A stretch of DNA of 64,000 nucleotides from Acidobacteriota bacterium (GTDB lineage Bacteria > Acidobacteriota > UBA6911): NCBI GenBank assembly GCA_012729555.1, contig JAAYCX010000051.1, positions 17,882 to 81,881 of the forward strand. Reading direction: 5' to 3'. Both the position numbers and the translations under genes were made by a program. The notes under the pieces are model-generated. The model worked only from the letters and a program-made list of their open reading frames with translations. It made no database searches and had not been told where the DNA came from. Of the stretch, positions 26,194-39,811 are shown in pieces. Positions within the stretch are counted from its first letter, which is position 1. Every line of letters starts with the position of its first letter.

Positions 26194-26270
26194 GCGCCCG
26201 TAGCTCAGTTGGATAGAGCGTTTGACTACGAATCAAAAGGTCGCACGTTCGAGTCGTGCCGGGCGCACCA
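26194..26270 (+). tRNA. tRNA-Arg (anticodon ACG), CCA-encoded
   Basis: Folds by eye into a cloverleaf. Acceptor GCGCCCG/CGGGCGC, D-arm GCTC-AGTTGGATA-GAGC, anticodon stem TTTGA/TCAAA with loop CTACGAA (ACG), T-arm GCACG-TTCGAGT-CGTGC, discriminator A, then CCA. Confidence 0.85.
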
Positions 26271-26351
26271 TTAAAATCAAGGACTTAGCAGGATTTCCCC
26301 AGACAGTTCCGGCCTTGGAAGCCGTTTGCCAGGGCCATCGGAAAGCAGGGA

Positions 26352-26642
26352 TCAGGCGGCCGTCCTGACCCTGACCCTCTCCAGTTTGGCCGTCGCTGTC
26401 GCCAAACGGAGATCGTGTTCGGTCTGAAGGTTCATCCAAAACTGCGCCGGAAGGCCGAAATATTTTCCCAGCCTCAGGGCGGTCTCGGCGGAGATTGCCC
26501 TCTTGCAGCGAACCACGTCGTAGATGCCCGGAAAATCGAGATCCTTTGCCAAACGGTAAGCCGTAATCTTCATGGGCTCCATGAATTCGGTCTTTAGAAT
26601 CTCGCCCGGATGGACCGTCCAGATCTTCTTTGTCTTTCCCAT
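26352..26642 (-). CDS. higA: HigA-family antitoxin (XRE-type HTH)
   Basis: MGKTKKIWTVHPGEILKTEFMEPMKITAYRLAKDLDFPGIYDVVRCKRAISAETALRLGKYFG matches HigA/VapI HTH antidotes. GGAGG RBS. Start at the internal ATG 26642 rather than the track's 26747. Confidence 0.8.
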   Translation of the reverse strand: MGKTKKIWTVHPGEILKTEFMEPMKITAYRLAKDLDFPGIYDVVRCKRAISAETALRLGKYFGLPAQFWMNLQTEHDLRLATATAKLERVRVRTAA

Positions 26643-26653
26643 CGAGTCCTCCG

Positions 26654-26935
26654 CTAATGATAGTCGACGATTTCCGCATCGTAAGCCCTGCCCTCCCGCC
26701 ACGCGAAGCAGATGCGGCATTGATCGTTGATCCGGATGCTGTAACAACCCTTGCGTTGCCCCTGCAACGCCTCCAGCCGGTTTCCGGGAGGCACCCTCAA
26801 ATCATCCAGCGTCACGGCGGCATGCAACAAGAAGAGCTTCTTAAGTGCCCTCATTCTCAGATTGGCGGGAATCCTTCGACTTCGCCCCGTTCGCCAAAGC
26901 TGCTCCGTATCCGCATCCCGGAAGCTCTCTATCAT
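26654..26935 (-). CDS. higB: HigB-family toxin (RelE/ParE superfamily mRNA interferase)
   Basis: C-terminal motif GCYSIRINDQCRICFAWREGRAYDAEIVDYH is typical of HigB killer proteins. Lies 11 nt upstream of higA. Confidence 0.8.
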   Translation of the reverse strand: MIESFRDADTEQLWRTGRSRRIPANLRMRALKKLFLLHAAVTLDDLRVPPGNRLEALQGQRKGCYSIRINDQCRICFAWREGRAYDAEIVDYH

Positions 26936-26940
26936 GCACC

Positions 26941-26970
26941 AATACTACCGCGCTACAGTAGTATTGTCAA
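26941..26970 (-). promoter_or_regulatory. higBA promoter/operator: consensus TTGACA-N17-TAGTAT on the minus strand inside an 8-bp-arm palindrome, -10 ending 6 nt before the higB ATG (leaderless-type)
   Basis: The minus-strand read is TTGACAatactactgtagcgcggTAGTATtggtgcATG. Plus-strand inverted repeat AATACTAC (26941-48) / GTAGTATT (26958-65). Confidence 0.5.
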
Positions 26971-27091
26971 GCACTACTATTTCTGGGTATGGCCTGAGAA
27001 TCGATATCACCCCGGGCAATACCTCAGAAGGAATACGGCGCTGGCGCAGGTCCGCCCGGACCAATTTCTCTTTTGCCGGCTCCCGGTCGCC

Positions 27092-27496
27092 TTACTTGCG
27101 CCTGAGGTCCGACAGGGTATAATCGGCCCCCATCCCCATGCGCCCCGCGGCCTCATCCAGCGCTTCCTGCAGGTCGCCCACGGCGATCCCAGCCTCCTTT
27201 TTCACCGCAAACCGTACCGTTTTGCTTTTCTGGTCGACGGCGACGGCCCCGATTTCCTCGAAATTCCGGAGCGTCCGCTCGATCAGCGGTCCGCACCCGT
27301 CACAGACGATCGAGTTCACCGTGGCCGTGTAGGTTCCGGGCATCAACATATCCCCGACATCTCCGGGTTGGACGTGGGCTCCCCCCGGGTGCTCCTGCCG
27401 GTCACACGCGCTGCCGAAGCCCAGCAGCGCCAGGACGGCGCAGGCAAGCGCGAGAACCCCGAGCCTCGATCGTGTTCTTCCCTGGATCATTGTCAT
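27092..27496 (-). CDS. heavy-metal-associated (HMA) domain lipoprotein / periplasmic metallochaperone
   Basis: Lipobox LLGFGSAC. HMA fold with metal-binding IVCDGCGPLIERTL...VRFAVKK. Confidence 0.6.
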   Translation of the reverse strand: MTMIQGRTRSRLGVLALACAVLALLGFGSACDRQEHPGGAHVQPGDVGDMLMPGTYTATVNSIVCDGCGPLIERTLRNFEEIGAVAVDQKSKTVRFAVKKEAGIAVGDLQEALDEAAGRMGMGADYTLSDLRRK

Positions 27497-27899
27497 ACCT
27501 CCCCCCTTTTTTTAGTGAACCTTGCGTCGCGCCCTCGGAACCGGCGCCCTGACGCGTTCACGCCGGTCCATGCAATCGGCGTGCCGCACCGCCCGGGAAG
27601 GCCGCGTCGGGGGAAGGGCCCGCATTCACGGCACTATCCATCCGGATCGCGCCGGGGCGGCGGCGCCGCACGGCCCGCGGAGGCGTGTCAAATTCAACAG
27701 CACTGTTGAATTTGACACAGTCCTGAAGCCTCCGCCGCCGGCCGCAGCCTTGCCCGGAGCCCTGAACGAAGACCGTTCTTCCGCTGTAACGCACAGGGGT
27801 CTATGCATTTGATCGTCCCCCGATTGGATGGACGGCTCCCGTCCCGCCGCGGTGGCCCCCGATTTGCTCCGATACCGGCGCAGAGCCGGGAGGTGCAGG

Positions 27900-38386: not shown

Positions 38387-38539
38387 AACGGTTGGTCTCG
38401 CGGGGCGCGCTGGAGGCTGCTCCAGCACAGCCAAACGCGCGTCCCCCTGGCTCATCCCTGCCACGCGGGCGTTCCATCGCTTCCGACGCCACGGAAAGTT
38501 CTCCATGGCATGATTTTAAATGCCCTGGTATGATAAAGC

Positions 38540-38794
38540 ATGAAAGGAACCACTATGAAAACAGCACCCTTTGCCACCAAACTACCAGCGGACCTGATTG
38601 CCGAGCTCGATGATGTCTGCAAGGCCCTCGGGCTGAAAAAGAACTTTGTCCTCGAAGCCGCCTTGAGGGAAAAACTCGAGGACCTGGTGGATGCCGCCGA
38701 CCTTCAGCATGCCATCAGGGAAGCCACAGGCTTCCATGCGTGGGAAGACATCAAGCGTGAGGATCGCCTGACAAGGGGCAAAATTGCCATATAA
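38540..38794 (+). CDS. type II antitoxin (RelB/DinJ or ribbon-helix-helix type)
   Basis: Small acidic 84-aa protein overlapping a RelE/ParE toxin gene by 11 nt. Confidence 0.6.
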   Translation: MKGTTMKTAPFATKLPADLIAELDDVCKALGLKKNFVLEAALREKLEDLVDAADLQHAIREATGFHAWEDIKREDRLTRGKIAI

Positions 38795-39038
38795 GCTCGA
38801 GCTGGAAACCCATGCGCGCCGTGAATACCGCGATTTGCCGATGCACGTGCGCGAACAGATCGCTGATGTCCCGGACGATCTGCAGAGGAATCCGCGTCCG
38901 CCGGGAGGCAAAAAACTGGTGGGGACAACAGGCTATCGCGTCAGAATGGGAGATTACCGCATTCTCTATACAATTGACGATGCATCATCGGTGGTGCGCG
39001 TGTACCGGATCGGGCACCGTCGTGAGATCTACCGCTGA
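38784..39038 (+). CDS. relE: type II toxin, RelE/ParE family
   Basis: C-terminal motif GYRVRMGDYRILYTIDDASSVVRVYRIGHRREIY. Confidence 0.8.
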   Translation: MPYKLELETHARREYRDLPMHVREQIADVPDDLQRNPRPPGGKKLVGTTGYRVRMGDYRILYTIDDASSVVRVYRIGHRREIYR

Positions 39039-39161
39039 GACCGGTCCCGGCCCGTGTCGTTCAGGAGACCGGCAGAGCCGGGACGTCCCCAGATTTCGTC
39101 ACCGCAGGGGGGAGCGACCCGTAGCCGGGGGGCTTTTGTCTTTTTCCGGCGAGGCCTGACG

Positions 39162-39380
39162 TCAGGCTGCTTCTCTCGGCTTGTAATGCAGAACCAACAG
39201 CTGGTCTTCTTTCAGCGCCAGACTGGCATAGGCGCGGCCGTCATTATCCGCAAACTCCACCTCAAACACATCCTGCCCCAGCAGCTCGACAACCGTTCCC
39301 ACTTGTCCACGGCGAAGTTTCCGGGCAGGCAGCTCGTCCGTCAATGCCACAACATCAAGAAGCTTGATGCTTTCGCTCAT
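39162..39380 (-). CDS. DUF4926 domain protein
   Basis: MSESIKLLDVVALTDELPARKLRRGQVGTVVELLGQDVFEVEFADNDGRAY matches the DUF4926 family as I recall it. Start at the internal ATG 39380. Lies immediately downstream of the DUF6883 gene. Confidence 0.6.
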   Translation of the reverse strand: MSESIKLLDVVALTDELPARKLRRGQVGTVVELLGQDVFEVEFADNDGRAYASLALKEDQLLVLHYKPREAA

Positions 39381-39391
39381 TTCATCTTCCT

Positions 39392-39784
39392 CTACAATAC
39401 ATAGCAACTCGTCAATCGGGGAAAATCCTCTCCCCGGCGAACGATCCAACTGCTTCGGACCACCGCCTGTCCCGATGGCCCGGTTATGCTGAAGTCTACC
39501 ACATACCGTCTACCATACTCATCGTGCTCTTCCGGCATTGCATCATTGTTTACTGCCGCCGCCCGCAGCGCACGCTGAAGATCCTGGACATGTTCAAGCG
39601 TGATCCCCAGTGATGACTTGAAGACCCGAGCCTTGTGGCACCCACGACGATGCTCGGGATTCAGGCAGTAATCCTGCAGCTTCTTTCCATCAACGACAGC
39701 CCGTTCTCCATTCGGCAGTTTCACCGTGTCGCTCTCCCTTGGGCATTGTAACACGACCCCATTTCTTTTCCGGCTCCTCGACAA
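39392..39784 (-). CDS. DUF6883 domain protein
   Basis: KLQDYCLNPEHRRGCHKARVF motif (KLxDYxLNxxH..GxxKAxxF). This family is usually encoded next to DUF4926. Confidence 0.6.
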   Translation of the reverse strand: MSRSRKRNGVVLQCPRESDTVKLPNGERAVVDGKKLQDYCLNPEHRRGCHKARVFKSSLGITLEHVQDLQRALRAAAVNNDAMPEEHDEYGRRYVVDFSITGPSGQAVVRSSWIVRRGEDFPRLTSCYVL

Positions 39785-39791
39785 GCTTTCG

Positions 39792-39811
39792 TTCAGGTCG
39801 TGCCGGGTGCG
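39792..39811. repeat. degenerate copy of the tRNA-Arg 3' end (candidate right attachment-site remnant)
   Basis: TTCAGGTCGTGCCGGGTGCG versus tRNA 3' TTCGAGTCGTGCCGGGCGCA: an 11-nt exact core (GTCGTGCCGGG) and 15/20 positions overall (17/21 if the preceding G at 39791 is included). Confidence 0.35.

Follow-up and report, generated by a model that had tools for sequence, protein, structure and literature searches.

The region that follows tRNA-Arg(ACG) in the DNA analyzed here, a window of 64,000 nucleotides from an Acidobacteriota bacterium, is fairly ordinary and represents an old, eroding neighbourhood, since its core lies at the same site in three Acidobacteriota lineages and only small cassettes at its ends vary. 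The flexible region is the interval between tRNA-Arg and an aldehyde dehydrogenase (aldDH) gene at 26.27-41.54 kb. On balance, with about even confidence, we read it as a long-resident, immobile and mosaic region of an uncultured Acidobacteriota genus that contains no current mobile element. The single accessory unit of 13.6 kb put forward in the original prediction was not borne out, in that all of the lineages compared (3/3) have the core (27.1-38.4 kb) at this tRNA. Foreign-looking DNA is confined to higBA (26273-27074) and to 38.4-41.5 kb, and would correspond to small cassettes of toxin-antitoxin (TA) or orphan genes at either end of the interval.

Other parts of the original prediction were confirmed. 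The gene list and gene order after tRNA-Arg(ACG) proved right in family searches. No integrase or other recombinase domain was detected in any ORF scanned or in six-frame pieces of 39785-40995, as had been claimed. Mobility genes, intact or remnant, were not found, and excisionase, relaxase and conjugation genes were likewise absent. The proposal of an old and immobile element that lacks an integrase is thus supported. The interval is flanked by a gene for a 414-aa protein and tRNA-Arg at the left and by aldDH and a Macro-domain gene at the right.

Gene content and conservation of the core

The core comprises the following genes.

27092-27496, minus strand: HMA-like lipoprotein with lipobox and CxxC, putative metallochaperone (weak PF00403 match, E = 3.8e-4, with a score below the curated cut-off)
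27828-29228, plus strand: cusC-like OEP (PF02321)
29225-30562, plus strand: cusB-like MFP with HMBD (PF16576 and PF19335)
30578-33721, plus strand: cusA-like RND pump, ACR_tran (PF00873, 755 bits)
33718-34395, plus strand: 225-aa signal-peptide protein after cusA
34432-34791, minus strand: dsrE (Pfam match)
34725-35516, minus strand: ArsR-rhodanese regulator (Pfam match), stop codon lost, overlapping dsrE
35700-37424, plus strand: nine-haem c-type cytochrome lipoprotein (574 aa, exactly 9 CXXCH, lipobox)
37454-38386, plus strand: PDZ/GspC-like (T2SSC-like) protein (Pfam match)

The OMF, the MFP with a metal-binding domain and the RND pump are encoded together in one operon, which is the arrangement of CusCBA-type systems, and source annotations name the pump homologues CusA/SilA.

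Three lineages were compared: A, represented by the window; B (L175-L178), with 96-97% nucleotide identity to it; and C (L169, L170, L181 and L183), with about 92%. Lineages B and C have in common the order 414-aa gene, tRNA-Arg, HMA lipoprotein gene and cusCBA with the 225-aa gene, followed further on by the cytochrome and PDZ genes. The unit of cusCBA and the 225-aa gene is kept in lineages B (97.3%) and C (92.3%) and has a native-like codon usage. Homologues of cusCBA with 83-86% identity occupy quite different contexts, implying that the unit has moved during evolution. The cytochrome and PDZ genes have a GC content of 0.69, like the flanks.

Between A and C, the core is 92.3% identical and the left flank 92.1% (range 92.1-92.4%). 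Since the divergence of the core is in step with that of its flanks and its codon usage is native, the core is not a recent island. A deviating GC content and codon usage, as would be expected of accessory DNA, was not observed for the core genes, whose GC3 and codon distance both fall within the distribution seen in the flanking genes (|z| <= 2.3); it is the TA and orphan genes that depart from the flanks (z = -3 to -10). Along the interval, the GC content is, in order, 0.56, 0.65, 0.69, 0.57, 0.46 and 0.44. Within the genus, to which this comparison applies, the accessory status originally predicted does not hold for the core, which all three lineages (A, B and C) carry next to this tRNA and which is not sporadically distributed; it can be retained for higBA and 39815-41538, to which lineage-specific DNA is limited.

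The core has been reduced in different ways. A deletion of 208 nt (27441-27648) in lineage C takes the 5' end of the HMA lipoprotein gene. The dsrE and ArsR-rhodanese genes are present in lineages A and C and deleted in B, where the deletion also comprises most of a neighbouring 192-aa gene, of which a remnant is kept; this gene is intact only in lineage C and lost in A. The genes from HMA to PDZ would thus have been inherited vertically and eroded by lineage-specific deletions.

An outgroup with an empty site was not found when genome and metagenome contigs carrying the tRNA-adjacent 414-aa protein were scanned. Matches of this protein beyond 85% identity are not syntenic and lack tRNA-Arg, and the contigs of the closest relatives, L005 and L089, end at or within the tRNA. 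Homologues of aldDH of about 82% identity (L085-L087) are located in unrelated contexts. The idea that a relative of lower GC content has cusCBA, GH2 and aldDH in conserved linkage was dropped, as L085 and L171 have only the GH2 gene in common. Six Logan contigs (L180 and 5 similar ones) carry other DNA past the tRNA. Their reading as integrated elements was rejected and they were treated as assembly chimeras through the conserved tRNA; in contigs of this type the 3' half of the tRNA would give two mismatches in the acceptor stem, and it is followed by DNA that is visibly AT-rich.

Cassettes at the two ends of the interval

The features of the left and right ends are as follows.

26194-26270, plus strand: tRNA-Arg(ACG), left anchor (ARAGORN; Rfam RF00005 at 70.8 bits)
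26273-27074, minus strand: higBA cassette, an 802-nt insertion in the window lineage (A) only
26352-26651, minus strand: HigA (TIGR02607, E = 5e-24, above cut-off)
26654-26935, minus strand: HigB (PF05015, above cut-off)
38540-38794, plus strand: relB-like (NF048017, below cut-off)
38784-39038, plus strand: relE/parE (PF05016)
39162-39380, minus strand: DUF4926 (family match)
39392-39724/39784, minus strand: DUF6883 (family match)
39790-39814, plus strand: sequence resembling the tRNA-Arg 3' end, candidate fossil attR (18/21 at 39790-39810)
39815-40516, minus strand: lineage-specific low-GC segment (GC 0.46; no family matches)
40093-40404, minus strand: orphan 103-aa membrane-like ORF within this segment (no family matches)
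40517-40765, minus strand: aldDH 3'-end stub (40584-40765, 182 nt) with native downstream flank (40517-40583)
40766-41538, minus strand: low-GC insert with a DUF4279 gene at 40996-41478 (PF14106, E = 3.7e-18)
41539-42996, minus strand: intact aldDH gene (PF00171)

According to family models, the interval is predicted to encode two small toxin-antitoxin pairs of adjacent genes that match type II families. The interval adjoins the 3' end of tRNA-Arg directly. Lineages B and C have this tRNA at the corresponding place. Lineage-specific DNA sets in at 26273: the higBA insertion (GC 0.56; GC3 z = -3 to -4) begins 2 nt past the tRNA CCA and is missing in lineages B and C, in which the site consists of 14 nt that form the left arm of a hairpin. 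No additional tRNA-end repeats were found beside higBA. The relBE-DUF cluster (38540-39784) is present in lineages A and C with 94.6-97.4% identity and also deviates in composition (GC3 0.57-0.63, z -5 to -6.5). The right-end comparison is between these two lineages, and exact-protein look-ups with RelB returned A and C only.

The end of the block originally predicted at 39811 holds in part. It lies a few bases from the point at which A/C colinearity stops (39812-39817), but low-GC DNA continues to 41538, which is the compositional end of the accessory DNA, and the actual right border is formed by the stop of aldDH at 41539. Past 39812-39817, both A and C hold low-GC cargo that is mutually non-homologous; in lineage C, the equivalent of 39815-40516 carries genes for XRE-HTH, DUF433 and DUF5615 proteins. 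The DNA in this position would have been replaced independently in each lineage.

At the right edge, the aldDH stub, which matches the C terminus of PF00171, forms a direct repeat with 41541-41721 (91% identity). It is 90.7% identical to lineage C and contiguous with a flank that has 75% identity with the sequence following aldDH in C. The intact aldDH gene is 97-99% identical to that of lineage C over its full length (98.9% over its last 181 nt), compared with about 92-93% overall on both sides, where 250-500-nt windows nevertheless reach 97-98%. Identity to C falls to 95% and then 91% just beyond the aldDH 5' end, and the raised tract ends at about 43040. The DUF4279 insert has a GC content of 0.44 and a GC3 of 0.41 and is missing from lineage C. 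The 182-nt stub together with the high identity of aldDH suggests, at the level of sequence, that DUF4279 and an aldDH allele were acquired in one import. The right edge of the window lineage would then have been rebuilt by the import of about 2.3 kb, consisting of DUF4279 and a sister-lineage aldDH allele, with one homologous and one illegitimate end, and the final 182 nt of the resident aldDH would have stayed behind. Gene replacement of this kind, in which 3' remnants are retained, is known to proceed by homology-facilitated illegitimate recombination (PMC3240628, PMC5361080). Alternatively, strong constraint could account for the high identity of aldDH. Site-specific integration of an element with an aldDH-like attP as source of the 182-nt repeat was rejected, as the whole of aldDH, and not only its last 182 nt, is sister-lineage-like.

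The tRNA-like sequence and the origin of the region

The original prediction reported that the block ends, opposite the tRNA, in a degenerate repeat of the tRNA 3' end. This repeat is real: its exact 11-nt core (GTCGTGCCGGG, 39797-39807) is shared with the tRNA, and the match is better than the 15 of 20 positions claimed, namely 16/20 in the same frame and 18/21 for 39790-39810. A third copy of the 11-mer is present at 16799-16809 on the minus strand, the shuffle expectation is 0.14 per 11-mer, and the tRNA 3' end has equal-scoring matches on the minus strand of the window. In first-order Markov simulations, the P of a match of this quality to the tRNA's 3' 45 nt is 0.18 in the 37.7 kb downstream and 0.08 in 16.8 kb. 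Taken alone, the match is not significant (P = 0.08-0.18). The alignment with the tRNA 3' end reaches 39814. The coincidence of the predicted end with the break in A/C colinearity has a P of about 0.006, given some 9 breakpoints in 16.8 kb. The tRNA-like sequence is kept in lineage C with one mismatch more and is located 66-90 nt upstream of where DUF6883 is called to start on related contigs. Neither in A nor in C was a second tRNA-end repeat found within or beyond the variable segments, the exact tRNA 3' end had zero matches in IMG/VR viral contigs, and Rfam and promoter/terminator scans at this position added nothing.

More likely than not, the tRNA-like sequence is a fossil attR, the scar left when DNA integrated long ago at the 3' end of tRNA-Arg. 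If the scar is real, the DNA between tRNA and scar would have entered, at once or stepwise, before the lineages split; the integration would have targeted the tRNA-Arg 3' end and the integrase would have been lost since. That everything from tRNA to scar is one single island we consider less likely than not. The variable DNA sits outside the proposed attR and not inside it.

The native composition and co-divergence of the core are equally consistent with the region never having been an island. In this case, an ordinary neighbourhood follows the tRNA, cassettes were inserted independently at intergenic spots, and the 21-mer reflects chance or the promoter region of DUF6883-DUF4926. We regard this as a serious possibility, if a somewhat unlikely one: the P of 0.08-0.18 for the tRNA-like match alone, the equally good matches elsewhere in the window, its position 66-90 nt upstream of the DUF6883 start, the absent integrase, and a core with native codon usage that co-diverges with its flanks in three lineages all speak for it. 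What it does not account for is that the end specified beforehand at 39811 lies about 3 nt from the A/C break in a phase that fits the tRNA 3' end (P about 0.006), and that the cusCBA unit has moved in evolution, as judged by the 83-86% identical homologues in quite different contexts. Improbable in our estimate is a real scar that does not delimit a single island, either through stepwise accretion at tRNA-Arg or through a TA cluster (38.4-39.8 kb) that brought along a piece of a foreign tRNA-Arg site. The mosaic GC content (0.56, 0.65, 0.69, 0.57, 0.46, 0.44) would fit several elements, as would the position of the scar in low-GC DNA, with the TA cluster on one side and the variable segment on the other, and higBA illustrates that insertion right at the tRNA 3' end is possible without an integrase in cis; yet the compositional blocks have no internal repeat copies between them, and the core looks native rather than foreign. 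In the accretion version, the oldest element would be located farthest from the tRNA.

A genomic island (GI, IME or ICE) at tRNA-Arg that is recent or still able to move can practically be set aside. Its tRNA-adjacent position and island-typical cargo of TA modules and metal efflux are countered by the lack of integrase, excisionase, relaxase and conjugation genes, the same site in three lineages with a divergence equal to that of the flanks, the native codon usage of the core, and a tRNA 3' end unmatched in IMG/VR viral contigs. Returning to the preferred reading of a long-resident, immobile region, we consider it speculative and rather unlikely that the scar at 39790-39814 is a working hot spot at which low-GC cassettes are swapped in each lineage without a recombinase in cis, with aldDH exchanged for a sister-lineage allele by one-sided homologous recombination.

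Significance and comparison with known systems

The value of this region lies mainly in calibration: next to a tRNA, a block carrying TA and metal-efflux genes resembles an island, but sister lineages show its core to be stably inherited and the truly accessory DNA to amount to only about 4 kb of small cassettes. Given this stable inheritance, the metal-efflux, sulfur and cytochrome genes are best regarded as belonging to the normal repertoire of the genus and not as recently transferred traits. Strain-level gene flow in this uncultured group, found in bioreactor and other environmental metagenomes, can usefully be followed by three end structures: the insertion placed exactly at the 3' end of the tRNA, the tRNA-like scar where synteny breaks, and the stub of aldDH. 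If the reading of a hot spot with aldDH replacement is true, it would be evidence, directly from sequence, that such gene flow occurs in an uncultured Acidobacteriota genus.

The region resembles degenerate tRNA-associated islands and islets in its position directly 3' of a tRNA, its metal-resistance and TA cargo, and, at its far side, a putative incomplete copy of the tRNA 3' end, which here also coincides with a synteny breakpoint. It differs from them in that no integrase remnant is present, the core is native and shared by all sampled relatives, and the DNA that varies is on the outer side of the putative attR. Another parallel is with type II TA cassettes that fill intergenic hot spots, as the lineage-specific pieces are TA pairs of deviant GC content, namely, higBA exactly at the tRNA 3' end in lineage A, and DUF433/DUF5615 with an XRE regulator in lineage C; unlike those, flanking repeats or a recombinase cannot be attributed to the cassettes here. 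Homology-facilitated illegitimate recombination was proposed for T6SS effector/immunity and Rhs arrays, leaving orphaned 3' remnants (PMC3240628, PMC5361080). The right edge is similar in that a complete, putatively incoming allele and new cargo (DUF4279) lie beside a resident 3' stub on its native flank, and the tract of raised identity stops near the aldDH 5' end, whereas it involves a housekeeping-type aldehyde dehydrogenase and a single displacement, by a mechanism deduced from sequence only. The efflux genes correspond to CusCBA-type heavy-metal RND operons, with an OMF, a CusB-like adaptor with HMBD and a CusA-like pump in operon order near a small HMA protein. Departing from typical CusCBA systems, this operon, for which metal efflux is predicted, has a conserved 225-aa secreted protein after cusA and is linked to dsrE, the ArsR-rhodanese regulator and a multihaem cytochrome.

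Gene content of the block

The original prediction described a tRNA-Arg-anchored accessory block at 26194-39811, and its gene list is borne out by profile searches. The features that matter for the following are:

26194-26270, tRNA-Arg(ACG), identified by ARAGORN and Rfam
26273-27074, higBA
27.1-38.4 kb, core (HMA, cusCBA-225, dsrE, ArsR-rhodanese, nine-haem cytochrome, PDZ)
38540-39812, relBE and DUF6883/DUF4926 cluster
39790-39814, tRNA-Arg 3'-end-like sequence, candidate fossil attR
40584-40765, copy of the 3' end of the aldehyde dehydrogenase gene (stub)
41539-42996, intact aldehyde dehydrogenase gene (aldDH)

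HigB (PF05015) and HigA (TIGR02607) lie directly 3' of the tRNA and are followed by a small lipoprotein with a CxxC motif and a weak HMA match. The cus genes come in the order outer-membrane factor, CusB-type adaptor with a heavy-metal-binding domain, and CusA-type RND pump, after which a 225-aa secreted protein without a family, DsrE, and an ArsR-rhodanese fusion are encoded. The nine-haem cytochrome is a 574-aa lipoprotein with exactly nine CXXCH motifs and stands next to a PDZ/GspC-like protein; a RelB-like/RelE pair and a DUF6883/DUF4926 pair are the final genes. No recombinase domain was detected in any scanned ORF or in six-frame pieces of unassigned DNA, in agreement with the predicted lack of an integrase.

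The 225-aa signal-peptide protein (33718-34395), whose gene overlaps the cusA stop (ATGA), has no match in Pfam, NCBIfam or PHROG and may be an uncharacterised fourth member of the cus operon. A hypothetical gene of 225 to 239 aa follows cusA in most of the fetched cusCBA homologue loci (L169, L175, L174, and L172, not L171).

Conservation and differences among sister lineages

The window comes from an uncultured Acidobacteriota lineage (lineage A); assemblies of JGI and ENA metagenome samples contain contigs identical to it. Contigs of its sister lineages were retrieved with CusA and with the 414-aa protein adjoining the tRNA as queries; lineage B (L175-L178) shares 96-97% and lineage C (L169, L170, L181, L183, and others) about 92% nucleotide identity with the window. 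The order 414-aa gene, tRNA-Arg, HMA, cusCBA-225 ... cytochrome, PDZ is common to all three. Thus, the same order at this tRNA in relatives, which the original prediction had named as counting against it, was found within the genus, in three lineages. The identity between A and C is 92.3% in the core and 92.1% in the left flank, and the GC3 and codon usage of the core fall within the distribution seen for 29 genes of the flanks, |z| reaching 2.3 at most (within 1.3 for the cus genes, dsrE, cytochrome, and PDZ; -1.8 for ArsR-rhodanese). Because it has diverged together with its flank and has native GC3 and codon usage, there is no indication that the core was transferred recently. The 13.6 kb is not a single accessory unit, its core being conserved in A, B, and C and of native composition. 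Homologues of cusCBA with 83-86% identity were found in different surroundings that include no tRNA, dsrE or cytochrome, so the arrangement is specific to this genus; our searches found no outgroup with the same flanks.

At the tRNA end, higBA (GC 0.56) is present only in lineage A among the three. It starts 2 nt past the CCA; at this spot B and C instead have 14 nt that make up the left arm of a hairpin immediately following the tRNA. A 192-aa gene located between ArsR-rhodanese and the cytochrome in lineage C is missing from the window. Lineage B has neither dsrE nor ArsR-rhodanese and retains only about 140 nt of the 192-aa gene; given this remnant in B and the intact gene in C, these differences are deletions. 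Lineage C has also lost 208 nt, including the 5' end of the HMA gene. At 34725-34791, ArsR-rhodanese has lost a stop codon present in lineage C, which adds 24 codons and creates an overlap with the dsrE start.

Several contigs change or end near the tRNA. An IS110-family transposase lies upstream of it, after the 414-aa gene, in some lineage B contigs only (L175/L176, 11484-12626), and the sister contig L179 ends at this insertion point. The contigs of two further relatives, L005 (about 91% identity) and L089 (about 85%), end at or inside the tRNA, L089 at window position 26249. In L180 (2812-3565) and five similar Logan contigs, the sequence changes in the 3' half of the tRNA to another one, with which the acceptor stem would have two mismatches, and the DNA beyond it is visibly AT-rich and carries a CoA-transferase gene; these contigs are most likely assembly chimeras through the conserved tRNA. 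The whole tRNA-to-SDR region is bracketed by same-strand paralogous gene pairs (24298-26058 and 46809-48569), each encoding a UGSC-like small protein and a 414/445-aa protein of no known family (33% aa identity). The first pair is widespread, though not syntenic, among MAGs of Dehalococcoidia, Desulfatiglans, and Bathyarchaeia.

Variable DNA and the aldehyde dehydrogenase gene

Colinearity between A and C stops at 39812-39817. Beyond it, the window carries 702 nt (GC 0.46) with an orphan 103-aa ORF, and lineage C carries 1.7 kb (GC 0.55) encoding an XRE regulator and a DUF433/DUF5615 pair. Low-GC DNA runs to 41538, and accessory DNA ends there and not at 39811, as had been proposed. In JGI sample 3300009121, two contigs of this organism (L185 and L004) end at window positions 39909 and 39932, 22 nt apart and about 100 nt right of the tRNA-like sequence, which may point to differences between strains at the variable segment or simply to low coverage. 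To the left, the relBE and DUF6883/DUF4926 cluster shares 94.6-97.4% identity with C, versus an average of about 92%, despite a strongly deviant GC3; at the protein level, A and C have 100% identical RelB, with 5-8 residue differences in the neighbouring proteins.

The stub repeats the aldDH 3' end over 182 nt, with 91% identity to the end of the intact gene (41541-41721); of the 16 positions at which it differs, 11 are GC-to-AT changes. The adjacent 67 nt (40517-40583), to which it remains connected, are a 75% match to the sequence following aldDH in C; with this native flank, it lies 0.77 kb from the intact gene. The 773-nt insert between the two (GC 0.44) carries a DUF4279 gene and is absent from lineage C. 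As judged from these sequences, the aldDH allele appears to have been imported together with the DUF4279 gene. About 2.3 kb, comprising DUF4279 and the aldDH allele of a C-like relative, would have replaced most of the resident aldDH, with a homologous crossover at one end and an illegitimate join at the other, and the resident 3' end would have stayed behind as the decaying stub. This import is the simplest reading of the right edge, and such a pattern has been described for homology-facilitated illegitimate recombination (PMC3240628, PMC5361080). Over its whole length, intact aldDH shares 97-99% identity with lineage C, which a site-specific element with an aldDH-like attP fails to explain. 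Just past the aldDH 5' end, identity drops to 95% and then 91%; the average for the DNA on both sides is about 92-93%, with single windows at 97-98%. Strong constraint on the gene is an alternative source of its high identity.

The tRNA-like sequence as a candidate attachment site

The tRNA-like sequence GTTCAGGTCGTGCCGG lies upstream of DUF6883/DUF4926. Its 11-mer GTCGTGCCGGG (39797-39807) has a third copy at 16799-16809 on the opposite strand. The wider match to the tRNA covers 18 of 21 positions (39790-39810), so that the predicted repeat is present and better than originally counted, but alone it does not exceed chance. Simulations with a first-order Markov model gave a match of at least this quality to the final 45 nt of the tRNA with P = 0.18 across the downstream 37.7 kb and with P = 0.08 across 16.8 kb, and other sites in the window equal it in matching the tRNA 3' end.

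When the tRNA is overlaid on the match, its last base falls at 39814, within the zone where alignability between A and C ends. The predicted block end (39811) had been stated before any lineage comparison, and it holds, lying within a few bases of this zone; given some nine breakpoints across the 16.8 kb under comparison, one would land within 5 nt of the predicted end with a probability of about 0.006. This coincidence is the one real, and substantial, support for an attachment-site scar. The geometry is unusual, with conserved DNA inside and variable DNA outside, and no second copy of the repeat was found at the far side of the variable segment in A or C.

The original prediction thus stands in its genes, missing integrase, age, and boundary, and not in the single unit, the repeat significance or the accessory end. 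We hold with about even confidence that the region is ancient, immobilised, mosaic, and flexible, its core now ordinary chromosome, with a probable fossil attR at 39790-39814 and TA and orphan cassettes turning over at both ends. The main rival, that it never was an island and that the tRNA-like sequence is incidental, is favoured by the chance-level repeat and disfavoured by the boundary coincidence; we regard it as a serious possibility, if somewhat doubtful. Under either reading, this type of structure is already known, and the phylum is a little-studied one.
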